Shown here piece after piece: positions 22,801 through 64,000 of a stretch of 64,000 bases of DNA (the stretch's first letter is position 1; each line of letters opens with the position of its first letter). The position numbers were made by a program, and so were the translations under genes. The stretch lies in contig NC_057749.1 in assembly GCF_004010195.1 (NCBI RefSeq), forward strand, positions 5,683,339 to 5,747,338. The letters run 5' to 3'. Under the pieces are notes generated by a model. It was not told the DNA's origin. It saw nothing but the letters and a program-made list of their open reading frames with translations, and did no database searches. This DNA is from Chiloscyllium plagiosum. Lineage: Eukaryota.

Positions 22801-25800
22801 CTGATTTAATTAGGGGAGGAAGGCACAAGGACATTTTTGCTGTCCCACAAATGCAAATGATGCCTTTAAATGGGAAATGAATGCCAGTCATGTTCACTTA
22901 TGGGCTCCAAACTGGGAGGCATCCTTCAAAAGCATTTAGTGTCTCACCAAGGGATCCATGTCTGAGAGGGGTCCTTGAGAACCAACATTCTGCACTTGGC
23001 CATTGTTTCCCTCCCCATTCTCCCCATCCTGCCTGTGACCACTCACCTATGACCTGGTCTCTCACTGATATAACAGCTGCCATTAGTGATGCCTTGTGCA
23101 ATGGATGATATGTTATTGCCCAGCAACTATCAATGGCTGGCATGTCCACTCTGGGGCTGGTCCTTGATTGCTGGCTAGGCTGGCTGTTGGCTACTTAAAT
23201 TGCTTCTCTCATAAGGTGATGAATCTGTGGAATTCACTAGCCCAGAGTGTGGCGAATCCCAGGACCTTGAGTAAATTTAAAGATGTTGTGGAGATGGCGA
23301 TGTTGGACCGGGGTGGACAAAGTTAAAAATCACACAACATCAGGTTATAGTCCAACAGGGTTACTTGGAAGCACTAGCTTTCGGAGCACTGCTCCTTCAT
23401 CAGGACAGCTACCTGATAAAGGAGCAGCACTCCGAAAGCTAGTACTTCCAAATAAACCTGTTAGACTATAACCTGGTGTTGTGTGTGTGATTTTTAAACT
23501 AAATTTAAAGAGATAGACAAATTTTTCAAGTTTAAAGGGCTATAGAAAGCAGGCAGGAAAGTGAAGATGAGGTCAAGATGAAATCAGCCACGATCATATC
23601 GAATGGTCTATCTCAAGGGGCTGAACTGCCTGCTCCAGCTCCTAGTTCTGATCTGATGTTCTTAAATACTTGGCTGGGACTTAACATAGAAGGCCTTCTC
23701 TCAATGAGGTAATGCAGGTTCTTAACAGTTCTTCACCTAGCAAACAAGACCCCAGTTGCCTGGACTCATACAATTAATTTATAATCCCATGGGGAGATTG
23801 GGCTAGACAGAGTTCCACTGAAATATATCCCTGTAACAATAGATTACATATCCCTTTAACTCGGGAATTAAGGCAAATTAATTGTTTTCAGAACGTCAAC
23901 CCATTTTGGTTGCTATTCTATTGTACATTAAGGGATTGAAATTTCACATACACAAGATGTAAGACAGAGATTGTTGTGGTATTGTCCTGATTGCTGTTAC
24001 CCGCATCTCACAGTTTCTGTTACCTCTACAGGTATGTGTTTCAGAGCGAAGGGATTTGTGATGCTGCCACCTATTCTCCTTTGTCAATTCTTTGTCCAGG
24101 GTCTACCTGTGGTAGGATAGACTCTGTTGGACTACAGATCTTCAGAGAAGAGACATTGTTCTTCAGTAACAGGGTGGTTTATTGCATGACAGCAATACGT
24201 ACAACTGACAATTAAGTTAGACTCTCAGGAACTATACAAAACACAACTTCTTCCGATGAAGGTTAGGATAAAACCTCCTGTCTCTGCCCATAAACTGTGA
24301 GTGGCATCCACAAAATAAGTGGAGCCCAATGTAACATGAACATGAACTATTTCAGAACCATTATCTTGTACAACAAAACTGAGTGCAAATTAATGTTGCA
24401 TGTAAGTTAACGGACACTGACAGTTTGGTTAATATCTCACTCCAGTATGAAGCAAAGTTGCTTTTAAAACTGAACAAAACAATACATTTTAAATCCAATC
24501 TTATTCAAAGAAGTCCAAATCATTCAGTACCAAGCTGAACTAATGTGCATTATAATCACAATGAAGGTGCCTATTTTCTTTACAGCAAAGGATGGTTTTT
24601 AAAAGTTTCTTTTTTCACAAAACAAAACTTCTATAGGTATATCTAATAACAACATGCTTGACACCATCCAAGACAAAGCAGCCCACTTGATTGGCACTAC
24701 ATCCACAAACATCTACTCCCTCCGCCACCGACGCTCAGTAGCAACAGTGTACATTATCCACAAGATGCACTGTAGAAATTCACCAAGTCAGCAGCATCTT
24801 CCAAAACCACAATATTTCCATCCGGAAGGACAATGGCTGCAGTTATGGGAACATCACAATGGGCAAATTATCCTCCAAGTCACTGACGATCCTGACTTGG
24901 AAATATATCACTGTTCCATCAGTTTTGCAGGGTTGAAATTATGGAATTCTCTCCATAATGGCATTATGGGTCTACTTACACCAAATGGACTGCAGCAGTG
25001 CAAGAAATCAGATCATTACCACCTTTTCAAGGACAGCTAGGCCCGGTCAATGATGACAACATCCTGTGAATTAATTTTAAACTTCAAAATGAAGCCCAGT
25101 AAGGAATCCTGGCCTTGAAGTGAAGCCCAGTGAGGACTCCTGGCTTCAGGTGAAGCCTAGTGAGGACTCCTGAGATCAAGGTGAAGCCTAGAGAGGATTC
25201 CTGGCCTTGAAGTGAAGGCTAGCACAGACTCCTGGCCTTGAGGTGAAGCCTAATGCGAACAACCGGCCTTGAGGGGAAGCCTAGCATGGACTCCTGGCCT
25301 TAAGGTGAAGCCTAGCATGGGCTCCTGGCCTTGAGGTGAAGTCTAGCATGGACTCCTGGCCTTGAAGTGAAGGTTAGCATGGACTCCTGGCCTTGAGGTG
25401 AAGGCTAGCACAGACTGCTGGCCTTGAGGTGAAGGCTAGCACGGACTCCTGGCCTTGAGGTGAAGGCTAGCATGGACTCCTGGCCTTGAGGTAAAGGCCA
25501 GCATGGTCTCCTGGCCTTGAGGTGAAGCCTAGCATGGACTCCTGGCCTCAAGGTGAAGCCTAGTGCGGATTCCTGGCTTTGAATCATAGAATCCCTACAG
25601 TGTAGAAACAGGCCGTTCAGCCCAACAAGTCCACACTGACCCTCCAAAGAGTAACACATCCAGACCCATTCCCCTACTCTACATTTACCCTTGACTAGTG
25701 CACCTAACCTACACATACCTGAACGCTATGGGCAGTTTAGCATGGCCAATTCACTTATCCTGCATATCTTTGGATTGTGGGAGGAAACCAGAGCAGAACC

Positions 25801-28800
25801 GGGGAGAACGCGCCAACCCCACACAGACAGTCGCCCGAGGCTGGAATCGAAGCCAGGCCACTGGTGCTGTGAGGCAGCAGTGCTAACCACTGAGCCACGA
25901 TGCCACCTGAGGTGGATCTTAGCAAGGACTCATCTGTTCTATCTGCTTTATTTTTCTCTTCCTCTGCTTTAGAAGGACTGTAATGCTTTATGTCTTTATT
26001 TTTCACATTTATACTGAAGATTTTGTACCTCGGCACCTCTGCACCTAAGACAGGGCCAGAAATGGTGACTTTGTACACCTTTCACTGCAACCTTTTGCTT
26101 GAGTACATGTGATAATAAAACCTAATTCGCATTGAAAATGAGCCACAAGAATACAAATGAGCAGCACCTCTGTAGTTGTAAGTTACCTGGAAAACGGCAA
26201 TGACTTGCTTTCGAGCTCTCTGGAATAACTCTTCATCCGAGTAATTGGGATTCTTATCTTTAAACCAGCGAGCCAAATAATTGTGATATCGCAACCAGAC
26301 GATGCTTTCCGCCTGGAGAAAGGGACTTTCATTTGCTCGTGCATTTCCAAAATCTTTCAGAAAATAACACAAAAAGAAATGTTGTGAAGAATAGGCAAAA
26401 CTTTATCACTAATTTCTTTCCCATCATCAACGAGTCTTTCGTCTTAGATTTTATTAAACCTTATCCAGATGTTGTAAAGTCATGGAGGTGAACAGCACGG
26501 AAACAGACCCTTCGATCCAACTAGTCCATGCCGATCAGATATCCTAAATTAATCTCGTGCCATTTGCCAGCACTTAGCCCATATCCCTCTAAACCCCTCC
26601 TGTTCATATATCCATCTAGATGCCTTTTAAATGTTGTAACTGCACCAGCCTCCACTACTCCGGAAGGCAACTTTTTCACATACACGTACCACCTGTATGT
26701 GAAAAAGTTGCCCCTTCGGTCCCTTTTATATCTTTCCCCTCTCACCTTAAACCTATGCAGTTTAGTTTTGGGCTCCCCTGCCATGGAGCAAAGACCTTAA
26801 CTATTCACCTTATCCATGTCCCTCATGATTTTATCAACCTCCATAAGGTCACCCCTCAGCCTCCTACATTCCAGGGAAAGAGGTCCCAGCATATCCTGCT
26901 TCGCCTTACAATTCACACTTTCCAGTCTTGGCAACATCTTTGTCAATGTTTTTTGCACTCTGTCCAGTTTAAAAGTCAACCAGACTTCATGTGCTCATAT
27001 ATTCTGCAACTGCATCCCAATGGTGAAGAAGCTCTTGAGTGGCTGTTTATTTAAAACATTTATTTTCAGGAAATGGGTGTCACTAGCTCAGTCAGTATTG
27101 TTTATCCCCAAATTGCTCAGAGAGCAGTAATGAGTCAACTACAAGTGACTGGGAGTCACATGTTAGAGGCAAAAAAAATCGGGGACACCAAACGTAGGGA
27201 ATGGTTCGCCGAGCATCTCAGCCAGGCCGGTGGGGCCTGACCGGACCTCCCAGTCACCGTTCATTTCAATTCCCCTTCCCACTCCCTTTCTGACATGACC
27301 ATTCTTGGCCTCCTCCATTGCCACAATTAACCACACTGAAAATTGGAGGAACAACACCTCATTTTCCACATGGGCAGCCTACAGCCTGGAGGACTCAACA
27401 TTGAGTTCTCCAATTTCAAATAACCTCCCTTCACTTCACCCTACTCCCTGCCCAGTCCCTCCCCTCCCTTCCACTCCTCTCTGCCACCAACCGGATTCAT
27501 CCCTCCCATTGACCAACAAGGTTGTACCCTCTACCTGTCTTCACCTATCCCCACTCCACCACTCTGCCCCCGTCAGCCCCCGTAGGTTCAACAAATTTAT
27601 TTAGAAAAGAAATGGGAATGAAAGTGAATTTAAAAACCCAGATGACTCACCTAGTGCTCTTCGGCAACCCTACCTGGTGGCCCTATGCATCTGTCTAAGT
27701 GGCCTTTTATTGCTGTGTGGGTGATGCTGAATGGATTAAATTCATCTGGGACATAGTGCATCACTGATTTTGACCATTCCAATGTTAATATACAAACATA
27801 CAAATTAAGAGCAGGAGGAGGCTATTCAGTCCCTTGACCCTGCTCCCCATACACCCACCCCCAGTCCTGAAGAAGGGTTATACACAAAACATCAACTTCT
27901 CCACCACTTGATGCTGCCTGGCTTGCTGTGTTCTTCCAGCCTCCTGCTTAGTTTACCTTGGGAGTCACACACATAGCCCAGACCAGGTTAAGACAGCAGT
28001 TTCCTGCCCTAAAGGGCATTAGTGAACCAGATGGATTTTTCCTGATAATTGTCAAAGGATCCATGGTCATCATTAGACGCTTAATTCCAGATATTTGTTG
28101 AATTCAAATTCCACCATCTGCCATGGCAGGAGTTGAACTCAGGTCCCAGTCATTACTTGGGTCTCTCGGATTAATTGTCTAGCGATAATGTCACAAGGCC
28201 ATCACCTTCCCCTTAACAGTGCTGGAATTTCTGTCTCCCCACCACTGACAATTCCACCCCTCCCCACCCCACATCACAGATTATAGAATTGTTACTCTAC
28301 AGGGTGCTGATATTCGGTCTACTGTGTCGGCACCAGCTCATTAAATGAGCCAATCTCCTGCACATTATTTTTATCCAAATAACTATCCAATGCTCTCTTG
28401 AATGTCTCAATGGAACCTGCCTCCACTATACTTCCAGGTATATTCCATACCCTAACTACTCGCTCATTGAAAAGGTTTCTCTTCATTTCACTCTTGCTTG
28501 TCTTGTTAAATCTAAGCTCTCTTATTCTTGCTCATTTTACGAATTGAAACCGTTTCTCCCTGTTTACTCTACCTGGCCCGTTCATGATTTTCGTCCACAG
28601 TCTTCTCCCACCTCTAATAATCTGCAAATTAAGCCCATGCAACACCTGGTATCATTTCCTGTCAAGAAAAATAGGAAATGCAAACAGATATCGGTTATGA
28701 ACCCGAGTATTTTACTGAGGAATCGAACTAGTTACCGTAAAGTCCCTGAAGTCCAGTCTTTTTGGCGACAGGATCTGCCATTTTCCACAAACGAATCAAC

Positions 28801-31800
28801 CCAGTACTTGGCCTCGGTAACAAACCGCCTGAGGAAGTGTCCAAAAGCCCATCAGAAAACGTACGCAGGGCGTCACTCCAAGAATGGGATGACCCATAGA
28901 TGGAGCTTCCATCAATCCAGGTAGTGACATGGTTTACCTGAAAAAAACCAGGGATGAGACGGACGTCAGTTAATGATAATAATAGCTAGTTACATTTATA
29001 TAGTGCCTTTATCATTCATACTTAAAGCTACTTCACAGGAGCATTACAAATTAAAGTATCACATTGAGCTACATGATGAGCTAGGTGAAAGTGGGTACTG
29101 CAGATGCTGGAGATTCGAGTCAAGATTAGAGCGGTGCTGGAAAAGCACAGCAGGTCAGGCAGCATCCGAGGAACAGGAAAACTTCCTGCTTTTCCAGCTC
29201 CACTCTAATCTTGACTACATGATGAGATGTTGGGACAAAAGACCAAAGGTTTGGTCAAAAAGTGTACACCTTTTAAGTGCAACACAAGATGCAGAGGTGG
29301 AGGGAGTACATTCCTGAGCTTGGAGCACAGGCAACTGAAGGTACACCATCAATAGTTGGGTGCTTTATAATTGTGGACACTCAAGAGGAGGGCAGAAATG
29401 TTGGAAGGTTGTCGGGCTGGAGGGTTTTATAGATATAGAGAGTATTAAGGCCCGAGAGGGATTTGAAATCAACAAAGAAAATTTTAAAATCAAGCTGGCT
29501 TTGCACTCTAACCTCCAGATGAACCCAATATCTCTGACCCAGAGGAAAAAGTGCTACCAATTGAGACATAGCTGAATTATGTATAATCTGGTCAAAAGGA
29601 ATTAGAGCTAATTCCAGTAGGGTTGAATTTGTAGATTATGTCAACTTTTGGTCACTAATCCAAACGCAAGTGAGACATTAATGCACTGAAAGGTAATGAT
29701 AGTAATGAGCATGAAATCATAGAGTCATACTGCACAGAAACAGACCCTTCAGCCCAACTCGTTCATGCCAACCAGGTTTCCCAAATTAAACAAGTCCCAT
29801 TTTCCTGTGTTTGGCCCATATCCCTCTAAACCCTTCCTATTCAAACACCTACCTAAATGTCTCTTAAATGTTGTAATTGTACCCACTTCTACCACTTCCT
29901 CTGGCAACTTGTTCCATGTACAAACTACCTTCTGCATGAAAAAGTTGCTACTCAGCTTCCTTTTAAGTATTTCCGCTCTCACCTTAAACCTATGCCCTCT
30001 AGTTTTGGACTTGCCTCCCCGAGGGAAAAGGCCTTAGCTATTCACCTTATCTGTGCCCCTCATGATTTTATAAATCACTATAAAGGTTAGTGTAAGACTT
30101 CAGAGTTATAACTGAAAACTAATGAAACCTGGTCCCTTTAGCATTGAAAGGGGATAGCTACACCAAGATCTTACAGACTGGCAAACAGGACAGCACATCG
30201 CATACAAAGGCTGAGTTAAAACATGACTTCCAAGTAAACTTCAACAGAAGGAGATGTGGGTTGAAATCCTGTCACCTGTTTCCTAACAGCCTGTCGGTGG
30301 ACCTACAGCATGTAGAATGCAGAGACTCAACAAGGTGGCTTCACCACAACCTTCTCAAGGGCAATTCAGATAGGCAATAAATGCTGGTCGAGTGAGCAAC
30401 ACCCACAAAATATGAAAAAATAAATTTAATAAAAAGTTCAAACAGCAAAAATGTCAAGACAGAATGAGGATGATTGTAGGATGTGTGAGGGCAGCAAAAA
30501 TTATATTAATTATTTAGGGTGCAATGGGATGACGTATGTGATTATTTTTCTTAAATTGATATATATGGAATGATGAGCCTTCCTCATCCCCGATTAATGT
30601 GCTTTGAGCAAACTTTGCACTTTAATTATTTTGTATTTTCCCTCCGTTACATTTATATCTCATTCTTCAGGTGAGGTGTCTCACAGGGTCCTGCCAACTT
30701 CTGCTCCATGAACAGTCAGTATTTGTTGGGGACCACCAAAAGGATAAAGCTTTGCCTTTTTAATTAACATGTGTAACTAAGAATTATTCCCCTCAATGAT
30801 TGCCCTTACCCACTTCCCACTAAGGGAATGGATGAGTGATAGAGTCATAGAGTCATAGAGCATGGAAGTAGATCCTTTGGTCCAGCCAGCCTACACTGAC
30901 CATGTCCCCACTTGTTTGTGTTTGGCCCATATCCCTCCAGACTTTTCCTATTCATGAACTTATCCAAATGCCTTATAAACTTTGTAACTATCCATCCATC
31001 CACCACTTTCTCTGGCAGTTCATTCCACAAAGCAGTCTCTGTGTAAAAAATTTGCCCCTCATTTCCTTTTTTAAATCTTTATCCCCTCAGCTTAAAAATA
31101 TGTCGCCTGTCCTATGGAAAAGATCCTTGCCATTCACCTTATCTATGCCCCTCATGATTTGTATCGACCTCAACAAGGTCACCCCTCAACTACCTTCGCT
31201 TCAATGAAAGAAGTCACAGCTTTTCCAGTCTATTTTTACATCTCAAACTCTCCATTCACAGCAACATCCTGGTAAATCTTTTCTGACCCTGCCAATTTAA
31301 TAATATCTTTCCTATAACAGGACGAGGAGGACTGCATGCAGTACTCAAGAAGCGGCCTCACCTACAACCTATCCAACTTTAACATGAGATTGGGACTCAA
31401 CAAGTGGATAAATGCATCTCAAACAGTTAAATCTGTTTCCTATATATTTAAAAAACAAGAAGTGTGTCTTACTTGGTGGTCCAATGAATATGTGGCTCTC
31501 TGTCTATAACATACCTGCAATCGTGGGTTGTTGGGACTTTGGCCTGAACTTGTTGTCCACCGACCACGTAGGAATGGGAGCTGCACATCTCCTGTACAGT
31601 TGGGATCAAAAACTATGTCTCCACAAGGAATCTGAATGTTCAGGAATTCAGCGGGACAACCAGACCCAGTTGCTTCCAAAATTTCATCAATGACATGAAA
31701 CCCTGAAACAAAGTCGAAGAAAAATCATTGCAAAGGCTTCAGTCTAAAGAAAAACTGTATTTCTTCCATTAAGTACATACAAAAAACTCGGCGGGGGTGG

Positions 31801-34800: not shown

Positions 34801-37800
34801 GATGTTACCTGGGGTGAATAGTCTCAGTTATAGAGTCATAGAGCCATAGAGATGTACAGCATGGAAACAGACCCTTCTGTCCAACCCATCCACACCGACC
34901 AGATATCCCAACCCAATCTAGTCCCACCTGCCAGCACCCAGCCCATATCCTTCCAAACCCTTCCTATTCATATGCCTCTTAAATGTTGCAATTGTACCAG
35001 CCTCCACCACTTCCTCTGGCAGCTCATTCCATACCCGTACCACCCTCTGTGTGTAAAAGTTGCCCCTTAGGTCTCTTTTATATCTTTCCCCTCTCACCCT
35101 AAACCTATGCCCTCTAGTTCTGGAATCCCCCACCCCAGGGAAAAGACTTGGCAACATCCTTGTAAATCTTTTCTGAACCCTTTCATGTTTCACAACATCT
35201 TTCTGATAGGAAGGAGACCAGAATTGCATGCAATATTCCAACAATGGCCTAACCAATGTCCTGTACAGTCACAGCACGACCTCCCAACTCCTGTACTCAA
35301 TACTCTGACCAATAAAAGAAAGCATACCAAACGTCTTCTTCATTATCCTATCTACCTGCGACTCCACTTTCAAGGAGCTATGAACCTGCACTCCAAGGTC
35401 TCTTTGTTCAGCAACACTCCCTAGGGCATTACTATTAAGTGTTTAAGTCCTGCTAAGATTTGGTTTCCCAAAATGCAGCACCTCACATTTATCTGAATTA
35501 ATCTCCATCTGCCACTTCTCAGCCCATTGGCCCATCTGGTCAAGATCCCGTTGTAATCTGAGTAACCCTCTTCGCTGTCCACTACACCTCCAATTTTGGT
35601 GTCATCTGCAAACTTACTAACTGTACCTCTTATGCTCGCATCCAAATCATTTATGTAAATTACAAAAAATAGAGGACCCAGCACTGATCCTTGTGGCACT
35701 CCACTGGTCACAGGCCTCCAGTCTGAAAAACAACCCTCCACCACCACCCTCAGTCTTCTACCTTTGGATAGGCTGGGTTTGTTTTCCCTGGAGCAGAGGA
35801 GACTGAGGCAGGGAATCTGATTGAGGTATGCAGAGCAGATAGAGAGAATATTTTCTGCATTACATACTTGCCTAAGATCAAAGGGTATAAATTTAGGATG
35901 AGGAGTAAGTGATTCAGAGGAGATCTGAAAAATAAATTTCACCCAGAAGGTGGCAGTAATATGAAATGTGCTGCCTGAGAGGGTGGTGGAGACTGGTTCT
36001 CGTCCCACATTTAAGATGCATCTCGATGAGCATTTCAAAGGCCAGGGCACAGTATGGATCAAATACCGAGAAACTGAACTCGTGTAATTTGATGTTTGTC
36101 GGTCGGCAGAGACATGGTGGGTTAAAGGGCCTGTATCCATGCTGTATGACTCAATGAACCGTTCCACCTCTCTATCTCTCAGTCCTCCAATAATATGCTC
36201 CATCAAGCCACCTTCTTTGATTAACACTTTTGGCCATCTGTCTTCAGCAATTAGAATCACCAGAATTGTCACGATCAGCAGGTTGTCAGGTTTTTTTTTG
36301 GATAATTACAGCTATAAAGCATACTGGGACGTTTTACTACTGGAAAGGTGCTAAATAAATACAAAAGCACTTCACACCCAATAAGGTACATTTGAATTGT
36401 TGTGAGATGGGAAAGACATTCGATGGGATTAGGTGTACAGAGTTGAGAGGGGTGTTGTGGAGGGAATGCAGAGATACGGATGGAGTCTGAAAGGTCTCTT
36501 TGCATGCTATGAATTCTTTACAAGATTAGGCTCTTGAGACAGCAACTCCTGTTAAACTATGTCCAAATTTATTTCCAGGTGAAGTCACAAAATGTTTTGA
36601 AGTGATCTTACTGAAGAACACCTTCAAGCATTTCACATGACACAAAGTCCTTTCAAAGGTAAAGACACTTGCTAATGGGCAAATACAGCTGTATATATAA
36701 TTATATATACAGTAAATTTTCCAGTAAAGAAGAAGGTAAACCTGTAAAAGATGCCAGCCAGGAAACCAGGAGAACTGGTTCTCATATCAGCCACAATAAA
36801 AGAACATGCATAGAACACAGATGTTAAAGGTCTGAAATAGGACTGGGTCAAGTCCCACCTCGCCAAATATCTCAACAGGTTGATTAGAAAAAACAACAAT
36901 TTAGCATTAGAAAATGCTGAAAGCACTCTGAATTCTCCAAAGAAAGCGAGATCCTTTCAGTTCAAAGAACTCTCATGTGTAAAAGCTTTATTCCATTTTG
37001 TCATTATTCAGATGCTCAACATGTTAGCACTGAGCCCAAATGCATACTGGGACTAATGACTTTACTCAAGAAAATACTCAACCATTGCACATTCAGTGAA
37101 AATTGAGGTAGTCCTCAAATAACATGGCAGCTACAATCCTGAAACTCAGCACATTAAACAAAACCATGTTACCGACCTGATTTGCCAAGGTCTGCCTGAC
37201 AAACATTCATACTTATAAACAGGATCTCATAAGGGGAGGTGATGGCTTAGTAATATTATCACTAGCCCATTAATCCAGACACCCAGGAGACTCTGGAGAC
37301 TCAGGTTCAAATCCTGCCACAGCAGATGATGGAATTTGAATTCAGTGAAAAAAATACCTGGAATTAAGAATCTAATGATGAGTATGAATCAGTTGTTGGA
37401 AAAACTCATCTGGTTCACACATCTACTTTAGGGAGGGAAACTGCTGTCCTTATCTGGACTGGTCCACATATGACTCCAGACCCACAGCAATGTGGTTGAC
37501 TCTTAACAATTAAGGATGGCCAACAAATGCTAGTCCAATCAATGACACCCTCATCCATTGAATAAATTAAAAAAAAAGGCTGTAATTTTAAAGATCTGAC
37601 ATACAATTGTTTCCTATATTTGAAAACCTCTCCTTTATGTTATCTCACATTGTGTTCTGACCTGCATTAAAAATCCAAGATGCATTCTTTTCGCAATGCG
37701 GAGGCTGACTGATTAGAAACATACGTTCCCAAAGAAACCTATATAAAAGTTTGGGATACATTCCCAGAAGTCATCCAGACTAATCTGGCAACTTTTTAAT

Positions 37801-40800
37801 GGAATACCTGTTCTTGCACTGTTTGGCTTCTCCTATACACACAGATTCATGAACTAACAGCACAAAGGCCAGTATCCCATCACCAAGTCACCCTTTATTT
37901 TCCTTTGCAAAGTGCATTGGCTGTGGCCAACCATATTGGAGTCTGCCCCTGAACTGAGGAGACTCTGAATCCCCTCTTTATATATTTTTTTCTGTATCTT
38001 TTTCTTTTTTGTTTCCCCCAGAGCTGAGGAGATTTCAGTCTCCTGGTTTTATATACTCTTTCTCTTCCTGGTGGTGGTATATGAATAAAGTTTTCTGCAC
38101 TTGATATTTTTTCACTGTGTCCCACACCTATTTGAATACGAGATGGGTGCTGGGATGAAGTAAGCACTACTGCTGTTTGGTAGCAACATGGCGGGTTTTA
38201 AAATAAAAAAAAATCCCCTGTTATATCTGTCAGCCAGGCTTTCCTGATTGGCCCAGATTAACAACTGATGAAGGGCTTTTGCCCGAAATGTTGATTCTCC
38301 TGCTTCTCGGATGATGCCTGCCCTGCTGTGCTTTTCCAGCACCACACTCACGACTCTAATCTCCAGCATCTGCAGTCCTCACTTTTGCCAGGCCAACAAC
38401 CCCAATCAAGAATCTCATACTCAACAAAATCCACATGATTCTAATCACTACAGTTCACTGAGACACAAATTGAATTATATGCAAGTCAGAACACAATGCA
38501 TGACAATATAAAGCAGTTGTTCATAAGTATAGGAAATGTTCATATGATTGATATTAATTTTTGACCTCTAGATGGGACTGCATTTGTTGTATGAGCATTC
38601 GTAAATTGAGGACACCCGCTATATTGAATAATGCCAACTCCATTCTCATTACTAGGGGATCTTTGTCATTTATGGGTAACTCTTGATGACATCTTTTATT
38701 GAACATTTGAAAAAAGGCTCATTGACATGTAGGATTTGACATTGATTATTAAACACACGAAGAGAAAAAAGACAGTGAAGGTGGAAACAGCTGAGTACAG
38801 AGACTTAGAAAAGAAACACTGCCCTCTGTGAGATAGGATGCCAATTATCCATTAAAAGTCACTCTAGCATTGTTAACATATCAGTGATCAATAAAATTCA
38901 CACTATTGCAAATTAGGCATGTGTTATTAGAATAATAGAGAGCAAAATAAAATCCATATTACTGTGAAACTGCATTATTTAAAACTGCATTAATTGCAGA
39001 CTTTCTGGACGTATACCATTAGAATAATGGAAAGTAAAATAACATCTGTGTTATGACAAAACCATGCCATTTAAAAGAGCACTAATTAAAGACTACCTGC
39101 ATCTTTAACTGACAACTTTCACATCCTGAGGAATTGCCATACCTTTTCACAGATTGTGAAGTAATTTTCAAATATAGACGTTCAGGAATACAGCAGCCAC
39201 TTCCACATGACTAGTTCCATTAACAGGAATGAAATAAATTACTAGATTTATTTTAATAATATTAGTTGAGGGATAAATATTGGATGCAGTGGCTGCAGTG
39301 GAGTTTGGAGCTGGGGCTGAAAACAATGGCTTTAATCATTTCAATCTTTAATAAAGAAATTAAACAGCACTTACTGATATGATTTTCCTTGCGATATTAG
39401 TCTTGTTAGGTACAAATTTGTAATTTTTGTACATTGTTCTTTTATTCCTGCTTTCATTATACTCCATGAGAAGAAATGTGAGTGTTCATAGCATCAACAA
39501 AACATTGCAATTTAACCTAGAAATAATCTTGGCTTCAACCTAGAGGTAGGGTCAAACTTGAAGGTAATATACCAACAATGTATTGCATTTATATTGCACC
39601 TTTGAACACAGCCTGGGTTGCTTCACAGAAGTATAATCCAACAAAACTTGACATCAGGCCAAAGGAGGGGAGATTAAAACACATGACCCCCCCCCCCAAA
39701 AAAGCCAAGGTATAGTGAGAGTGTGGCACCAATATAGTGACAGATAATCCTCCCCCCACTCCCCCAGGTTTCTTGGAGTGTGCAAACTTACATGTCACTC
39801 CTGCCCCACAGCAATACGCCCCTGAAACAGACGAGCAAGCAGTTCACTTTAAGGGCAATGAAGAATGGGCAATAAGTTTTGGTCTTGCCAATGATGTCCA
39901 TGTTTCAGGAATGAATAAGGAAAAAGATCAGGTAGAGATCTGTGGTCCAGAAGTATGGCTGCATTAAAGGTTCTTTGCTGTCCATCTCTAGTTTCTGAGA
40001 TTGGTTTCAGTGTAAAGTAGATTTACTCTCTGCCCGTGACCATATGTTAGTAACCTCTAAGTGTACAAGAATGATACCTGAACTTCAGGGGTTAAGTTAT
40101 GAGGAGAGATTATACAAATGAGGTCTGTTTTCTCTAGAATTTAGAAGGTTAAGGGGTGATTGGAGCAAAGATATCAATAAAGCAAGACAAGGTAGATAAA
40201 GATAGACTATTTCCATTGGTCAGAAATTCTACAGCTTGGAGGCATAGTCTGAGTGTTAGGGCCACATGGTTTAGGAGAGATGGTAGAAAGCACTTTGACA
40301 TATAAATGGTGATAGATGTTTGGTACTCTTCCAGAAATGACAGTTGCTCATTTTAAATCTGAGAGACACATTTTTGTTAGGTAAAAGTATTAAAAGACAT
40401 GTGCCAAAGGCAGGTAAATGAAGTTAGGCCAAAGATCAGCCATGATCTCTTGGAATGGAAGTATAAGCTAGAGGGGAAGAATGCCCTACTCCTGTTCCTA
40501 TGTTCCTAACATGTTTTTACTTGACTAATCATGACTTTGAGTTTATTTTGCAATGCTCTAACAGTCTTAGAGATGTACGGCACAGAAACAGACCCTTAAA
40601 TCCAACTCGTCCATGCTGACCAGATATTCTATATTAATCTAGACCCATTTGCCAACATTTGGCCCATATTCCTCTAAACTCTTCCTATTCATATACCCAT
40701 CCAAATACCTTTTAAATGTTATTATTGTAACAGCCTCCACCACTTCCTCTAGCAGCTCATTACATAGACACACCACCATCTGCATGAAACAGTTGTCCCA

Positions 40801-43800
40801 TAGGTCCCTTCTAAATCTTTCCCCTCTCACCTAAAACCTATGCCCTCTAGTTTTGAACTCCCCTACCCTGGGGAAAAGACATTGAGCATTTACCCTATCC
40901 ATCATACTCCTCATCCTCTGATGCTTCAGGGAAAACAGTCTCAGCCTATTCAACCTCTCCCTTTAGCTCAAATCGTCCATCCGTGTCAACATCACTGTAA
41001 GTCTTCTCTGAACCCTTTCAAGTTTCACAACATCTTTCCGATAGCAGGGAGGCCAGAACGGATTCTGGTCTCCAAAGGTTTCCTAACCAATGTCGTGTAC
41101 AGCTGCAATCTGACATCCCAGCTCCTATCCCAGCACTGACCAATAAAGGCATGCATACCAAATGCCTTCTTCACTACCCTATCTACCTGTGACTCTGTTT
41201 TCAAGGAACAATGAAACAGCACTCCAAGGTCTCTTCATTCAGCAACACACACCAGGACCTTACCCTTAATAAGTCCTGTCCTGATTTGCTTTTCCATAAT
41301 GCAGCACCTCACGTTTTTCTGTGAAAATGTAGGAATTCTATAGACATCTCCAAATTTTTAGTCAGCTTACCAAAGTAGACAAATAGCACAGTTCTGTTTT
41401 TGTCACATGGTATTCCCGACATTCCCTGCATTGCTACGTTGCTGATGTTCCGGGGATTTGGTAACTCGGGTTCTTGTACAGCTTCGAGAACTCCGTCAGC
41501 ATAATTGGCAGGCAGTAAGCGTACAAAAGGCACATCTGGATAGAAAGCAGCAACATAATATTTTTGGTGAATGACTTCAAAGCAGACCTCACAAACCTTT
41601 GACAAACATGATGATATAAAGTACAAGTTATAATTTGCAGGCAGGACTGAATAGGTTGGGTTCTTTACTCTAATAAAGTAATAGACATTGGGTGACCTTA
41701 CAGAACCACATTAAAATTAGGAAAGCCTTCGATAGGGCACAGAAGATGTTTCTACTTTCAGGAAGACCAAACTTTGGAGATATAAATGTAGGACGAATCA
41801 AATAAAGTCCAGAAGGGGCTCATTAGGATGGAAGCTGATTAGAGAATCTGAAAAATGAGGGCACAGTTTACCAGGTGAGGGGCTAATCATTTAGAACTAG
41901 ATTGATGAGAAATTTCTTCACTCAAAGGGCTGTTAATCTTTGAAATTCTCTACCATAGAAGGTTGTGAATGTGTTATCTTTGAATATATTAATGGCTGGG
42001 ATAGACACACTGGAAATCAAAGGTCATGGGGAGTGAGTGGGAAAGCAGAGTTGTTTGACCCCAAAGTCAACCATGACCATAATGAATGGGGGAGCATACT
42101 TGATACACCAGATTGTCTATTCCTGCTCCTAGTTCTGATCTTGTGTCTTTGATATTCTTTCACTTACCTCTACCATAAACCTATATTTCTCCAGTTATTG
42201 TTTCCGATGGTTGGGTCATGGACTTCCATTGACATGGTCCACATTTATGGGCTAAGCACAGCAATGGTTTGGGAAATGTCTCCTCAATATGGTTGACCTA
42301 ATGTTTAGAGACTGACAATCAACCTGTTGGATCACATGACAAGTATATCTCCCATGGCCAACAAGTCAGGCACAACAGTCAGAGCATCTGGAATGGACAC
42401 TACTCACCACATCACCTGCTCCAATTTCTTGACAATTACTAATAAATCTAACTGGGAACTGAGTGAAAATATCTTGACCCAGGAAGCCACTACAGTTGGG
42501 AACTCTGTCATATGGTGCAGTTGAGGCAACTGGTAAAGTTAGCTAGATGGCTACTTTGCCATGCAGAGTAATGCCAACAGAGTGGGTTCAATTCCTGCTT
42601 CAGCTGAGGTTACCTTGAAGGATTCTCTTTCTCAACCTCACTCCTCACCTGAGGCATGGTGACCCTAAGGTCAAACCATCACCCATCATCTCTAATGAGA
42701 GAGAGCAGCTCCTATAGTCTGATTAGATTCTGGTGACTTTACCTTTAATTGTCAAAGGGGGAAGCTAGAAAAGAACATGGTAGAACATAAAGAATATGTT
42801 AAGATGAAGTAGGGTTAGAGAAAGTTCATGTGGAGCACGGATATGATGGGCTGAACGGCCTGCTTCTGTGCTGTAAAATTCTACATAATCAATCCTATTA
42901 TTAATAAGTGGCTTAATTGGCATTCTAAACCCTTATTTTACAAACTTACTTCCTGCCACCTTTCTTTCCCAGCTCATTTATTCAAATGATGTGCTATTTT
43001 AAGAACTGCACATTCTGTTTTACGTCTGAAGCAGGTGAGTCCAAATCAAAACTCCAAAAACGTTCTTCCTTTTGCTTCCTTCTCCCCTGAAGGTGTTGAC
43101 TATTTCACTTACGCAATGTCCCAAACACCCCAGTAATCCCTTGCGTTCTCAGCAAAGCTAATGCCAAAAATTCAGGCATGAGTCATGAAAAGTCATTGAG
43201 TTCAGGCAACCTGTCCAACTGTGGCTGACTTTGTACCAAGTCCAATGTTGTCCTCAACCTAGCAGCCGGTGGGCATCGCTAGAGAAATGTTAGGGTTCCA
43301 TATTGACTATTGCTTGCTGCTGCTGAATTACACTCCCTTTCTTCATGTGTGCTCTACTCATGCCAGGTCTTTGGCCTATTCTCTGCGGTTATTTCAACCT
43401 GAGCTGTTTCCTTGGCAGATTTTTTTTTATCAGTGGTAGATCACCATTGCATTCTCAGGGGCAAGGTATGAAGGGAGGTCCCAGCCGGAATACAGGAATC
43501 AAACCCATACTGTTGGTGTCAATCTGAACCATGAGCGAACCAACTTGAGCTAATCCGTCCTTCTCAGAAGATTCTGGGGCCAATACTGTGGTGAAACAGG
43601 CTCCCAGTGAATTGGCTGCCAGTTTTACATCACACCCAATCTTCCTTCCAGAGAATTCCAAGGTATAATAAGCTCACATTCTTTTTGAAGATTTATTTCC
43701 TAGTTTTGCTGTCACTTTTATTTGTACTTCAGGTGGCAAAACAAACCTTGCCAATGTTTTCCAAGGCAGAGGGAAGTCAAAACTGGCAAGGTGAAAATAG

Positions 43801-46800: not shown

Positions 46801-49800
46801 TGATGAGTTTGAATTTGGAGTTCAATGTCTGATGTCATGTAGACAACAGCTACAGGTACTTTGCACCATGTCACATCAGGTTAATCTGGAAGACCATGTA
46901 CAGTATTGGGTCTGTTCCTCCTCCTTCTAATTTGTATGTTTATTTATTTCTAATTCATATTTCACAAACATCAAGATGTCCCTCTCTACCTCTTACGATT
47001 CTCAGCTCAATCCTATGTTGTGGCAATGCATATTCAAAGCTATGCTCCTCCCTTTTTGGAAGCAAATTCATCATACATCATGACTGCACTTGCTCAAATT
47101 CTCTACCTAAACCTGACCTCTCATAAAGCCTATCCTTTTACGTTACATGTTTGCATCCTAGTTCAAATCTTCTACTCCATCTCAGTGTCTACCCTTGTCA
47201 GTGTGACAGTTCAGGCAAAACGTCTCTCCCCAGAAACATTAACTTGGCATTTTGGCTTCCAGCTTACTGATGGAGATGTTTTAGATTATCCAGCACTTCT
47301 CATTCCATTTTTGAATATAAGTAGTTCAAGCAAACACTGGCCACACAATTGGGATTCCTCACTGGCTTTGATATAGTCTTCGGCTGTTGGTGGAAGTTAA
47401 AATAACTTCACAGAGGCTGGTATCCTATTACCAAGTCACTCTTTATTTATATGTGCACAGTATTTGACACTGGTCCGCTTTCTCAGAGGCAGCTCAGAGT
47501 GAAGAGAAGCCCCTGATACTCCTGTTTACATCTGTCATCCAGGGCTCCCTGGCTGGACCAGGTTAACAGCCCCAATCTGGGAACTGCTGGCTGATCTCAT
47601 TACATTCATTACAGAGGTTGTGGCAATCTACAAAAGAAAAACTGGTTAAGTAGGTAACACATGAAGTAACATGATCATTTGTCACTCCAATCCTGTGCTA
47701 ATTACTTTCAAACCATTCTTAATTAATTACTTTCCAGCAGCAAAATGCTGCTTTTCATTTCTAGAAACACTCGCAAAAAATCTGGTTGGTCTGGTTGTGA
47801 TGCATGGGGAGAACTTGATTGTAAAACTACTCTGAATAGCCTGTGAACTGAAGAGTGACTCATAGCCAGCAGAATATACAAAGCAACCTTTTTTGGAACA
47901 GTGGCCATGGTGACAGAATTGCTTGAGCAATTCTGTACTTTCCTGAGCTGTTCCCACTGGAGGAATATTAACAACGCCATTCCCCGAGTACCCCAACCCA
48001 TAATTAAAATATGCCTGGCAACAGGCATACCTCAGGCAGAATCAACACCACGAGTAATATATTTAAATTAAAATGACATAATTTCATTGGATTTCTTATC
48101 TCATAGAATATTTAACTCTGCTTTTGCTGTGTTGCTCCTGTGAGCACTTGAGGCATGTATAGGAGAAGAGTTACTTTTCTAGCACTGCGTAAAAGGTGAT
48201 ATCACCATAGTCCCAGAGGGCTGTCTTATCAGACAGGGTTGTGGTATATCCTGGGGGTCACCACATCTCTGGAGAGGGAAAGAGGTTGAGAAGGTGGGAC
48301 CTTCATAGTAACCTCAGCTGAAACGGGGATCAAACCTGTGCAATTGGCATTACTCTGCATCGCAAACCAGCCAACTGAGCTGTCTCTGAGAGAAATATGC
48401 CGAACACCAGCCTCGTTTGATCAAACAGGTCCATAACTCACGGGCCAGACCTGAGACATTCAATATGCTCCACAGCTGGCAAACAGAGACTGAAATGAAC
48501 ACAAATAGCATTTCAAACAAGGTAGGAAGATCCCACTGATATAGATCTACTGGAAAATACCTGCATTTTTATCGCCTTTCACAGATTCAGAACATCCTAA
48601 ACCCTAGTCAGCACCATTTCAATGAGTAGTCACTTTGTAAAGTAGGAAATACAGTAGTCAATTTGCACACAGCATGTCCCCACAAACAACAATGTTGTGA
48701 CGACCAGATAATCCCTTTGAGTGACTTTGGTTGAATTATCGATTGAATTATTGGTTGAACTATTGAACCACTGAATCCCCAGAGTGCAGAAAGAGGCCAT
48801 TTGGCCCATTAAGTCTACAGCAACCCTCTGAAGAGCATCCCATCCAGATTCAGTCCCCACTCTAACCTTGCATTTACCACGACTAACCCATCTAGCCTGC
48901 ATATCCCTGGACACTATGGGGCAATTTAGCATGGCCAATCCACCCTAACCTGCATATCTTTGGACTGTGGGAGGAAACCAAAGCGCTCGGCAGAAACCCA
49001 CGCAGACAGAGGGAGAGTGCACACACTCCAAACAGTCACTCAAATCTGGAATCGCCGCCCAGGTCTCTGGTGCTATGAGGCAACATGCTAATCACTGAGC
49101 CACTGTGCCACCAAACACTGACCGGAATACTGAGGAGCTTGTTGCCAGTTCCTTGAAGCCCAAAATGGTCAAGATGGACTACAATATTCATCATTCTGGT
49201 GTAACTAGAGCAGTCTTGTCGTGTAAAGTTTATTGCATTATAGTGACAATTTACACGAATATGACCTACATTGTTACACAAACTAAAAGGAGGACACAAC
49301 CATCCTTGGCTTATCTCCCAAAATCTCCTTCTTTAGTTTACTACATTACACTACTACTTTCCTCCACTTAATCAAGTGTTAACCCTTCAGACCTGTATGC
49401 ATGATTGTGCTCACCTCCACTAAGTCTTTTTCCCTCACAATTATCACAGCATCATACATTTGTTTCCAGGTTTACAGCTACCATTTTCGAAACGCCTCTC
49501 AAGTCTTTGACTTTATAAAGTCAGTCATACAACCTGGAGGTTTCACTATTCTTCCTGAATATGTTTTCTTCGGACTTGAAATAAAACTATTTGTTCAGCA
49601 GCAAGCAGTTGAGTTTGACTCTCTCCCGGATGGTCTGAGGTCTGTCATTCTCTCTTGAACTGGAAGGTCTTAAACTACTTGTCCCTCATTTAGAGAGGAC
49701 ATCAGTGATGTGCATTTATGCTTTATGTTGATCTGTGCGGTTCCTGCTTTGGCAGGTAGTTTTTTTTTTGTAGAATCTCTCTTTGTCTCTTCTCATTGGT

Positions 49801-52800
49801 AAATTCCATGGAGTTGTATGCAGCACAATGTCACGCTGTGTCAGTGGAATTTGGTTCTCATTCTGCCTGTAGATCTGTGCTGAAGTACACAGATATATTA
49901 CTTCAACTTCTTGAATGTCTTGGACTCTCAGTGATAAACTATTGGTCAAACCAGCTTCTTCATGACCCAATGCAATGACTGGAACCAGGACCAGGTGAAT
50001 CTCATTCACTGTGAGATCCTTGAGTGGGGTTGTTAACTTGGGCCAACTAGGGAGCCCCGGCTGACAGATATAAACAGGAGATTTCATGCAGCATTACCCT
50101 TTGATGTGAAGGGCACTGCTTGTCACTGGCCACTCGGGTGTTTCCTTTCTTCCTGGTGGTAGAAACTGAATAAAGATTTATGCACCTTGTGTCTTTCACT
50201 GTGTCTCACACCTGCACACACACAATATGGGTGCTGGGGACAAAATAAGCACTACTGCAATTAGCCGCTAGTGTGGGGGTAAAATAAGATTAAAAAAAAG
50301 AAAAAAAAGAAAAAGAAAAAAAAAGCAAGAGTATCAGAGGTTCTGTTCTGTCCGAGAAAAAGAAAATAAACAGGAAATTTCACGCAGCATTGCACTTTGA
50401 TGTGAAAGGCACTGCTTGTCACTGGCCACTTGGGTGTTTCTTTTCTTCCTGGTGGTGGAAATTGAATAGATTTGTACACCTTGTGTCTTTCACTGTGTCT
50501 CACACCATCACACACACAACATTGAGTGCTGGGGAAAATAAGCACTACTGCAGTTAGGTGGTAGTGCGGGGGTAAGAAAGAAAGGATAAACAGGAGATTC
50601 GCATGCAGTACTGCCCTTTATCAAGAGGGGCCCTGCTTGTCACTGGCCACTTGGGTGTTTCCCTTTCTTCCTGGTAGTGGAATCTAAAAATTTACACCCC
50701 TTGTTGTTCTTCACTGTATCCGATACCTGCAAACACACGACATTGTGTGCTGAGGAAAAATAAGCACTACCGTAGTTAGGCAGTAGTGCAGAGGAAAGTC
50801 TTAAAAGAAATAAAAAAGTAAAAGAATAAACAGGGGATTCAGAAGGTCTCCTAATTCTCGGGATTGGCTCTGAGCTGGCTGGTCAGAGCCCATAAACGGT
50901 GCACATATAAATAAGGGTTACTCGGTGACTGGATACCAGCCTCTGTTCAGCTAGTTCACTCAGTTTAGGTTACTTGAAGAGATATTCTTGTTAAATGTGA
51001 TTTTTGTTTGTTGGGAAGGCAGATACTTTTCTTGATCTTTGTCCCTTCCTATCAACTCAGTCCCGAAGGAAGACTTGAATTTGAAGAGGATGGTTCTTCA
51101 CTGTGCTGAATTATAATGTGATTCAGGGTAGTAGGTGCTTCTATTGTCTGGTTTGGCTTCTGCTTGAATGGTGCAGACTGTTCAGTTGCTGCCCCTTTGC
51201 TTGCAGTTTTGGAATCTGAATACTCTACTATTTTAATAAAATCATTTCATCCAAACAATTACAATCATAACTTGCTATCTCATTTATGGAATAAACAATA
51301 TTTTTTTTATTGCAATGCAATTAACTTCAGAGGATTCTGCTTTTTGTTTAAGTTCTGCAGCTTGCAAATGTGATTTCTTATTTTATCTTTAAAGGTTTGA
51401 TTGTACTGTAATGGTGCATCTCCTGCATTTTGCTGATGTAGTGAAGGGTAATCCTATGCTGTGTAGCTGCAGTTAATGCTTTCCAGCCTTTCTGAGTCTT
51501 GGTAAGGTGCCTGCTGTGTTCGGTTAAAAATCACGTACATCTTTAAATTGGCCAACAGTTATATGCTTGGTTGGTTGTTTGGTTGACTCCTAATGAAGGG
51601 CTTTTGCCCGAAACGTCGCTTTTCCTGCTCCTCGGATGCTGCCTGACCTGCTGTGCTTTTCCAGCACTACTCTAATCTTGACTCTGATCTCCAGCATCTG
51701 CATGCCTCACTTTCGCCTGGTTGGTTGTTTGGTTAGTTAGCCTTCCAGTCCTAGATTATAAAGGTTTTCTCTTGTAGTTTTCTTAGTTCCATTTTTCTGA
51801 CCCTGTCTCACAACAGTCTCGGCTGTAGGGGCGATATATGGTAATTCAAAACTGCAATATTTTTTAAAAGTTGCTGTTTCTGCCTGAAATACCTTGAAAT
51901 TTAAGACTTCCCCTTTTGTTCAAGGGATTTTTGGTTCGTCTCACGTGATCCTTGACACCTGCTCAATTCACCAGTTCTATGAGGACACGGAATCATTTTC
52001 ACTGACACAATGAGGCCTATACCTCAGTTTTAGAGCCTGTCAGACCAATATACAACAGTGACCGTCCCAGATCCTCTTCAGAGTAGTGTGACATGACTTT
52101 TTACATTAACCTGAAAGAGGACAGATAGTTCCTTTGTTTAAGGTCTCACCTCCTCCCTCACTGCAATATTCCTTCAGTACTCTACCAGAATGTCAGCCTG
52201 GATTTCAAGTCGCAGGTCTTGGGAGTGGGGTTTCTATCCACAACTTTGTGGCTCAGAGACAGGACTGCTTCCAAGAGTGAAGATGACTGATACATTTCTT
52301 TTCATTTTGATACTACATTCCATCATTCAGATGTTAAAGATACAGGAGACATTCACCGGCACCTTACAGTAGCCATGCAGGGTTGTTAAGGAATTATGTT
52401 TATTTAAATGTGATTACAGAAAGATTCAGTCAGCAGTTTTACGATAGTTTCTGAAGTTTTCTTTTCTCTTTTGCTTTGATCACTGCTGGCACGGTGGCTC
52501 AGTGGTTAGCACTGCTGCCTCACAGCAGCAGGGTCCAAGGTATTCCAGCCTCGGGCGACTGTCTGTGTGGAGTTTGCACATTCTCCCAGTGTCTGTGTAG
52601 GTTTTCTCTGGTTTCCTCCCACAGTCCAAAGATGTGCAGGTCAGATGAATTGGCCATGCTAAATTGCCCATAGTGTTAGGTGCATTAGTCAGAGGGAAAT
52701 GGGTCTGGGTAGGTGTGGACTAGTTGGGCCAAAGGACCTGTTTTCAGGTAATCTAATCCATTATGCATTAGTTCCCTTTCCTACTCATGGTAACGTCACT

Positions 52801-62762: not shown

Positions 62763-64000
62763 GTCATCGAGTCATACAGCACAGAGACACCACTTCGGTC
62801 AAACCAGTCTATGCCGAACATAATCTCAAACTAATCCCACCTGCCTGCTCCTGGCCCATATCCCTCCAAACCTTTCCCATTCATGTATCCATCCAAATGT
62901 CTTTTAAACGTTGTAATTGTACCCGGATCCATCACTTCATCAGGTAGTTCGTTACACACTTGAACTACCCTCTGTGTAAAATAATTTGCCTCATCACTTT
63001 TTAAAATCTCTCTCCTCTCACCTTAAAAATGTGCCCTCTAGTCTTGAAATTCCCCATCTGAGGGAAAAGACAACTACCATCAACTCTATCTATACCTCTC
63101 CTTATTTTATAAACTTCTTTCAAGTCACCTCTCAACCTCCTGCGCTCCAGTAAGAAAAGTCCCAGCCTATCCAGCCTTTCTTTATTACTCCAACCTTGCA
63201 CACCTGGCAACATCCTGGTAAATCTCTTCTGAACCATCTCGACCTTAATAATATCCTTCCTGTAACTGGGCAACCAGAACTGGACACTGTATTCCAGAAC
63301 AGGCCTCACCAACATCCTGTACAACCTCAACATAATGTCCCAACTCTCATAATCAAAGGACTGAGCAATGAAGGCAAGCATGTCAAATATCTTTTTAACC
63401 ACCCTGTCTATATGTGATACAAACTTTAGAGAATTATGTACCTACACCCCTAGGTTCCTCTGTGCTAATACACGACCTAAGGCCCAACCATGAACTGTAT
63501 AAGCCCTACCCTTGCTTGTTATACCAAAATCCAATACCTTGCATTTATCCATCTGTCATTTTTCAGCCTGCTGATCCACTTGATTGAGATCCTTTTGTAA
63601 TCTTAGTAACCTTCTTTACTGTATATTATGCCACTAATGTTGGTGCCATCCACAAACTTACTAATGATGCCTTCTATATTCTCATCCAAATCACTTATAC
63701 AAATGAAAAACAGAAGAGGATCCAGAACCAAACCCTGTGGAACACTGCTGGTCACAGGCCTCCATTCGGAAAAGCAACGCGCCACCAGTCCTCTCTGTCT
63801 CCTGCCATTAAGCCAATTATGTATCCAATTGGCAAGCTCGCCCTGAATCCCATGTGACCTAACTTTACCAATTAGTCTACCATGCAGAACCTTGTCAAAG
63901 ACTTTATGAAAATCCAAACTCTGCCATCATCAATCTTTTTGGTAACTTCCTCAAAAAACTGAATCAAGCTTGTGAGACACGAATTTCCTAGCACAAAACC
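62763..64000 (-). mobile_element. CR1/HER1 LINE ORF2 3' half, degenerate, runs off the window
   Basis: [56 protein letters not shown]. Confidence 0.9.

Follow-up and report, generated by a model that had tools for sequence, protein, structure and literature searches.

Serial insertion of a probable LINE-type retroposon at a TATA-like motif of an LTR family

A 64,000-nucleotide stretch of repeat-rich animal DNA (about 41% GC, with repeats of shark-like appearance; the window) was found to contain four copies of an A-tailed retroposon unit, all of them lodged within one family of long terminal repeats (LTR-X). The units probably derive from an abundant non-LTR retrotransposon, of which they would be 5′-truncated 3′ ends (3′ UTR, stem-loop, and A-tail). 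Its endonuclease would have a preference for a site at the TATA-like motif of LTR-X, and comparison with known elements suggests that a Tx1-clade LINE is the most likely source. The target position is fixed, 5′ truncation is variable, the insertions carry an A-tail and a target duplication of ~14 bp, and both subtypes of the LTR are targeted.

A query of the window with the LTR revealed three LTR-X copies, two of which are occupied at the same site, and one of which is empty. The 5′ half of the main host, a solo LTR of subtype B (49971-50083, + strand), begins with TG, is 82% identical over 67 bp to the empty LTR, and ends in a 14-bp target motif. This motif is present four times and splits the host LTR (49971-50958), at 50070-50083 (T0), 50366-50379 (T1, one mismatch), 50586-50599 (T2, no mismatches), and from 50826 onwards (T3), with zero to one mismatch throughout. 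The upstream LTR context is intact at T0, and T3 leads into the 3′ half of the LTR (50826-50958, + strand), which closes with CA. The second occupied copy (37850-38452, − strand) carries the target at 37981 (− strand) with one mismatch; at two mismatches, only two other sites were found in the window, without a unit behind either. The presence of the target at four places in the stack, compared with a single place in the empty LTR, represents a target-site duplication. The empty LTR (47398-47613, − strand), correctly recognized as such in the preliminary description, is of a different subtype (A) from the host LTR, and in this one case a base of the TATA-like motif is changed.

All three copies show solo-LTR features, with TG...CA ends (TA in the empty copy) and 5-bp flanks that match at 3/5 positions for the stacked host and at 4/5 for each of the other two, as would be expected of decayed solo-LTR duplications. 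The copies differ from one another by ~26-28%, and a Pfam scan of the open frames found no LTR-X internal region in the window. The 5′ half of the host contains a TATA-like motif at about 50066-50074 (+ strand), which, judged by where it lies and by its letters, may be the TATA box of the LTR. An imperfect inverted repeat just 5′ of the target (47520-47570 and 50031-50076; weak self-matches, E = 2.1 and 9.4) could be relevant to target recognition. The 5′ half of the LTR at 37850-38452 also contains an unrelated short dispersed repeat (38265-38392), with ~7 other copies in the window.

The three stacked units (~195 bp each) lie on the + strand, in the same sense as their LTR. Unit 1 (50084-50279), which has the character of a 5′-truncated 3′ end of a longer retroposon, has a decayed hairpin, and is followed by an A-rich tail (50280-50325; 37 A among the 45 letters of 50280-50324), by a piece comprising the remainder of the target and downstream LTR sequence of the other subtype, A (50326-50356, + strand), and by a second A-run (50357-50365, + strand). 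Unit 2 (50380-50585, the unit itself reaching ~50572) has an intact 10-bp hairpin and a short, purine-rich tail, and unit 3 (about 50600-50825, the unit itself reaching ~50793), the most diverged, has a hairpin and an A-rich tail. The terminal hairpins of units 2 and 3 are strong (z = −4.3 and −3.4), whereas those of unit 1 (+0.6) and of the fourth copy (−0.4) are decayed; the fold of the whole unit 1 RNA was no better than that of shuffled sequences (z = 0.12). The preliminary description had reported three ~200-bp units in a solo LTR, each with a hairpin, an A-tail, and target repeats. The units, tails, and targets were recovered, but the hairpin of unit 1 was not, and its account of units bounded by tail and target omitted the foreign-subtype piece and the second A-run between units 1 and 2.

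The units are visibly diverged, as first noted, with pairwise identities of 90.1% (173/192) between units 1 and 2, 79.5% between units 1 and 3, and 78.9% between units 2 and 3. A profile search of the window detected four unit copies (E = 7.9e-66 to 2.3e-35), all within LTR-X, and the next match had an E value of 1.1; the earlier observation that the window holds no free copies was thus confirmed. Chance co-location of the units and the target was rejected, the rough probability that two loci would be hit no more than 5 bp from the three target sites being 3e-7. An A-rich 3′ tail is present on all four window copies (short and purine-rich in unit 2), and the tails of units 1-3 are unlike each other.

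All three stacked units start at the identical element position, and truncation does not vary within the stack. This shared break argues against random truncation there, and it raises the possibility that the stack arose partly by local duplication, through unequal crossing-over between targets shortly after a first insertion, or that the 5′ junction was copied from a resident unit with which a later insertion had paired. Such a contribution would be compatible with the LINE interpretation, but is considered unlikely. A minority allele at 50116 (17-30% of depth), common to all three units, and a one-base insertion, common to units 2 and 3 and absent among the listed indels of 5% or more, would fit local copying as well as the shared break does. 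The tails, however, are wholly different, and the foreign-subtype LTR piece of unit 1 could not have been supplied locally. Over 190 columns, units 1, 2, and 3 carry 9, 9, and 31 private changes, respectively (16% in unit 3), and the distance between units 2 and 3 (21%) exceeds that between units 1 and 2 (10%). Five listed sites show at least 95% fixation of the family letter in both DNA runs but a different letter in unit 1; at all five, units 2 and 3 have the family letter. The private changes, the family letters, the unlike tails, and the foreign LTR piece together favor separate insertion events. As to the identical break, the element and the end of the target share a microhomology of 3 bases at this position, and a contig from another locus spans the same LTR-unit junction (50015-50160, with 23 other letters), which makes a 5′ break hot spot plausible; acting genome-wide, it would explain the shared start equally well. 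The comparison of units earlier suggested for separating serial insertion from tandem duplication thus came out on the side of separate events, with some room left for local duplication by the identical 5′ breaks. Unit 3 would be the oldest, and younger copies would have joined at the 5′ target, where the upstream context is preserved.

The extra piece behind unit 1 was examined by local alignment. The score was 35 against the empty subtype-A LTR, to which it is closest within the window, compared with 16 against the LTR in which it lies, and none of 5000 shuffled sequences reached 35. These values suggest that unit 1 carries a 3′ read-through from a donor locus in a subtype-A LTR.

The fourth copy occupies the same site in the second LTR, as had been described, and was found to be antisense to that LTR, so that three window units are in the sense orientation and one is inverted. 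Copy 4 (38057-38214, + strand, the unit itself at 38057-38200) lacks the first ~60 bp of the unit, and its A-tail abuts a target copy at 38212-38227. An LTR-sense piece (37982-38056, − strand) precedes the last target copy (37968-37982); it comprises a target copy followed by downstream LTR (~25 bp) and an A-rich run of 30 bp. Read in the LTR sense, the locus therefore consists of a target, a T-run, the inverted unit, a second target, ~25 bp of LTR, a 30-bp A-run, a third target, and the rest of the LTR. Strictly site-specific LINEs usually insert in one direction. Copy 4 could have arisen when a read-through RNA was inverted by twin priming, or it could be a genuine insertion in the opposite orientation. 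The LTR-sense piece scored 40 against its own downstream LTR (0/5000 shuffles), and because it matches its own LTR best, two separate events would explain the locus equally well. The order of target, T-run, antisense truncated element, and sense A-run before the last target resembles the twin or dual priming and 5′ poly(T) described for L1; unlike the L1 cases described in that source, the sense part of copy 4 also contains a target copy and ~25 bp of LTR (PMC2837659).

Family-wide evidence was obtained from public sequencing runs, 20 of 24 listed runs, from three organisms, containing part of the stretch. Reads of four runs were aligned to 49940-50375 at 80% likeness, with 50280-50375 skipped as repeat; the analysis of joints accordingly excludes 3′ flanks, poly(A) sites, and antisense joints, all of which lie in or run through the skipped segment, and the joint table covers junctions to the reference LTR only and thus has no denominator. 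In 13 joints, among the 15 listed of 60, LTR positions 50073-50084 were joined to 12 different unit positions (50123-50217); the other two listed joints were an internal deletion and a step back. All 13 are in the sense orientation, antisense joints being of the kind that would cross the skipped A-tail. The best 12 of 53 rows of a table of letters between joined ends gave four more junction positions, with 2-9 extra letters, and microhomologies of up to 5 letters were present at other listed joints. Three listed joints are common to organisms A and B. The fixed target side and the variable element side indicate independent 5′-truncated insertions. Together with the tails and the 14-bp repeats, these joints bear out the original proposal of a fixed site, hit by independent serial insertions that leave A-tails and target duplications.

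At 50080, several of the joints have three additional letters, identical or similar to the end of the subtype-A target, indicating that the cut position is shared by both LTR subtypes. Empty LTRs of two subtypes are represented by their downstream halves among the loose ends behind positions 50080 and 50083 (82; 70 and 73; 13 and 6 records); these and the other loose-end figures are among those listed, with 869 further loose ends. The preliminary description had allowed that the module might be built into an LTR subfamily as a constant internal segment; such a module would be propagated by the LTR element. In favor of this, the divergence of unit 3 (16% private) is similar in order to that among LTR copies, and the unit could therefore be as old as its host. 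The occurrence of empty LTRs of both subtypes, 16 junction positions in the listed tables (12 truncation points among the 13 listed joints), an antisense copy, A-tails, and target duplications led to the rejection of this proposal at the family level, and its probability is regarded as minimal.

The unit itself appears to be the end of something longer. Loose ends before 50089, present in each of the four runs (64, 46, 10, and 327 records), continue into similar, pyrimidine-rich upstream sequence, which indicates that a longer element has the unit as its 3′ end, and favors a LINE over a SINE. The initial classification as a site-specific SINE or LINE 3′ end is therefore narrowed towards the LINE, a SINE head being absent: a Rfam scan of the window gave no matches at the gathering score, and hence no known ribozyme or small-RNA head. 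It is very improbable that the ~200-bp unit is instead a SINE-like subfamily that is non-autonomous, has a constant 5′ end, is transcribed from the LTR promoter, and is mobilized in trans. A common 5′ start, as found in three units and in one or more other loci, would be expected of such a subfamily, and SINEU-3 stacks alike in the published description (PMC4494074). Most records, however, run upstream into the element (327 RNA reads, compared with about 23 at the LTR junction), many copies are shorter than the unit, the Rfam scan revealed no head of tRNA, 5S, or any other family, and a transcript starting ~30 nt past the TATA would begin inside the unit.

The family is abundant. In one run, summed depth was 2e5-1.2e6 over interior unit bins, compared with 4.5e4-6.6e4 over the LTR core, and in another, 3e5-1.7e6, compared with 1.2e5-1.7e5, values that are not copy numbers. 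This amounts to an excess of about 2- to 18-fold, with diverged LTRs under-aligned at the 80% threshold, and it leaves room for many element copies outside LTR-X. It also provides one ground for a different reading, in which a promiscuous L1/Tx1-type LINE has most of its copies elsewhere and the T/A-rich LTR motif is merely a hot spot. Some heterogeneous loose ends before the unit (at 50110, with an agreement of 0.43, and at 50242, with 0.55) and the opposite orientation of copy 4 would be in line with such an element. The depth excess is, however, inflated from both sides: with LTRs ~26-28% diverged, many fall below 80% and LTR depth is understated, and the stacks themselves raise the unit-to-LTR ratio. 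Moreover, all four window copies are at the LTR-X target, and the listed junctions fall within 12 bp in two LTR subtypes. A mere hot spot is thus rated as an outside chance, and a LINE with a preference for the LTR-X target is retained.

Alleles at 50119, 50134, and 50241 account for 46-58% of summed depth in organism A, compared with 0-2% in organism B, from which it follows that a subfamily grew after the two organisms split. These alleles mark a young, lineage-specific subfamily, and the family was active both before and after the split; the window units have the older letters at 50119 and 50134. Among the listed runs containing part of the stretch, none is recorded as RNA. In a single-cell poly(A) run, the depth of the first mate over the unit bins was 336-955 on the − strand, compared with 2-32 on the + strand, which fits sense RNA. 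This bias is no proof of autonomous transcription, since oligo-dT priming on intronic genomic A-tails looks identical.

The joints and duplications can be accommodated by target-primed insertion. The bottom strand would be nicked at the start of the 14-bp target and would prime reverse transcription on the A-tail; the top strand, cut 14 bp further, would act as primer for second-strand synthesis, in many cases with the help of short microhomologies of a few bases. As the target is duplicated in the process, the site remains open to repeat insertion, and stacks form. Later copies would be added 5′ of older ones, making the 3′-most unit 3 the oldest. In the case of unit 1, the donor RNA may have been read from a subtype-A LTR ~31 nt into the target side and then polyadenylated.

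Aimed insertion into another transposon is known from other vertebrates, and both LTR-targeting Tx1 families and target-sandwiching stacks are already described in the part of the literature consulted (PMC4494074). Tx1-8_Crp and Tx1-4_AMi, two crocodilian Tx1-clade LINEs reported by Kojima in 2015, prefer specific LTR retrotransposons; their host lineage and target differ from those of the LTR-X element, and the main text gives no target position for them (PMC4494074). LINEs were classed there as target-specific if over 20% of their flanks fell in one repeat (PMC4494074); here, copies inside LTR-X number 4/4, counted in the window only. SINEU-3 and Tx1-Mar insert into Mariner-N4_AMi, where tandem SINEU-3 copies sandwich a target duplication and were interpreted as sequential insertions (PMC4494074). 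The duplication is 16 bp in that system, and independence was shown by 5′-truncated copies, the same test as is applied here; the target there is a DNA transposon and the SINEU-3 body is U2-derived (PMC4494074), whereas the LTR-X units are the tail of a longer element and have no Rfam match.

The endonuclease of Tx1L from Xenopus laevis nicks its Tx1D site almost exclusively (PMC1950540). As in the published accounts of Tx1L, a putative sequence-specific endonuclease would direct the LTR-X element to a single site of another transposon; the target of Tx1L is a DNA transposon, and the specificity of its endonuclease was demonstrated in vitro (PMC4494074, PMC1950540). The LTR-X element thus works like a transposon-targeting Tx1 LINE, and may be one. 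Insect R1 offers a likeness at the level of the junctions, which are reported to have 14-bp duplications, microhomologies, and untemplated bases (PMC2718515); the same junction classes, the 14-bp duplication, and variable 5′ truncation are found here. Read-through of the downstream target on the RNA has been described to aid priming in R1Bm and R7Ag (PMC7265360), and downstream target carried on the RNA is sometimes transduced, which may be compared with unit 1 (PMC7265360). R1 belongs to the R1 clade and targets 28S rDNA, so this likeness to the LTR-X element is functional only.

The remainder of the window was surveyed for coding sequence. A Pfam scan covered 101 of the 107 open frames of at least 85 aa, leaving aside six that overlap one another at 2592-3792, and detected no ORF linked to the unit. 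Exact motif scans gave no matches to the unit in metagenome contigs, viral contigs, or prokaryote genomes, nor to the LTR in viral contigs; vertebrate DNA would not be expected in such collections, and these negative results carry no weight. Two reverse transcriptase fragments (35424-36305 and 63606-63926, − strand), 60% alike over 68 aa and presumably CR1-like by motif, are unlinked to the units. Exons of an animal haem peroxidase gene lie at 26085-26402, 28731-28985, and 41312-41710 on the − strand (Pfam An_peroxidase, profile positions 22-79, 146-193, and 212-270). Exons of this gene lie on either side of the LTR at 37850-38452; the LTRs at 47-51 kb are on the 5′ side of the gene, in an intron or upstream. 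The window also contains a minisatellite (25090-25582; 31-bp period, 15.9 copies, 83% matches) and a low-GC stretch (2592-3795), probably simple sequence, in which both strands carry open frames, six in all, that overlap and are 250-346 aa long.

A further reading concerns the choice of the exact site. A canonical poly(A) hexamer is formed where the tail joins the target, at 50365 and 50825, and the two extra LTR pieces (50326-50356 and 38015-38047) end 31 and 33 nt past the equivalent hexamer. A spacing of 31-33 nt is at the upper edge of the usual cleavage distance, and these two cases hint at poly(A) read-through. Judged from sequence, it is conceivable, though doubtful, that the LINE uses the TATA motif of a dispersed LTR family twice, in a self-reinforcing cycle of promoter capture. 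A sense insertion would leave an intact LTR promoter directly 5′ of the new copy, which would thereby gain a promoter, and the A-tail joined to the duplicated target would turn the TATA remnant into a canonical poly(A) signal. Transcripts would then end ~30 nt into the target side and take a stretch of their own target with them, of which the pieces of 31 and 33 nt may be examples. Such read-through could guide priming at the next LTR, and could give rise to inverted copies by twin priming.

No description of a family targeting LTR-X was found in the literature searched (titles and the openings of abstracts); repeat databases were outside this search, and the family may be catalogued there. 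The LTR-X element provides a clean natural example, and a very abundant one, of a LINE directed at a different transposon, and its value lies in its scale and in two details: the inverted copy, and the read-through piece that comes from the second LTR subtype. LINE endonucleases that recognize a specific sequence attract interest as tools for targeted integration. With numerous dated junctions from two or more species, the family could be used to map the target rule of the endonuclease and the growth of stacks, and promoter capture together with the poly(A)-signal reading, if true, would explain why this exact site was chosen.
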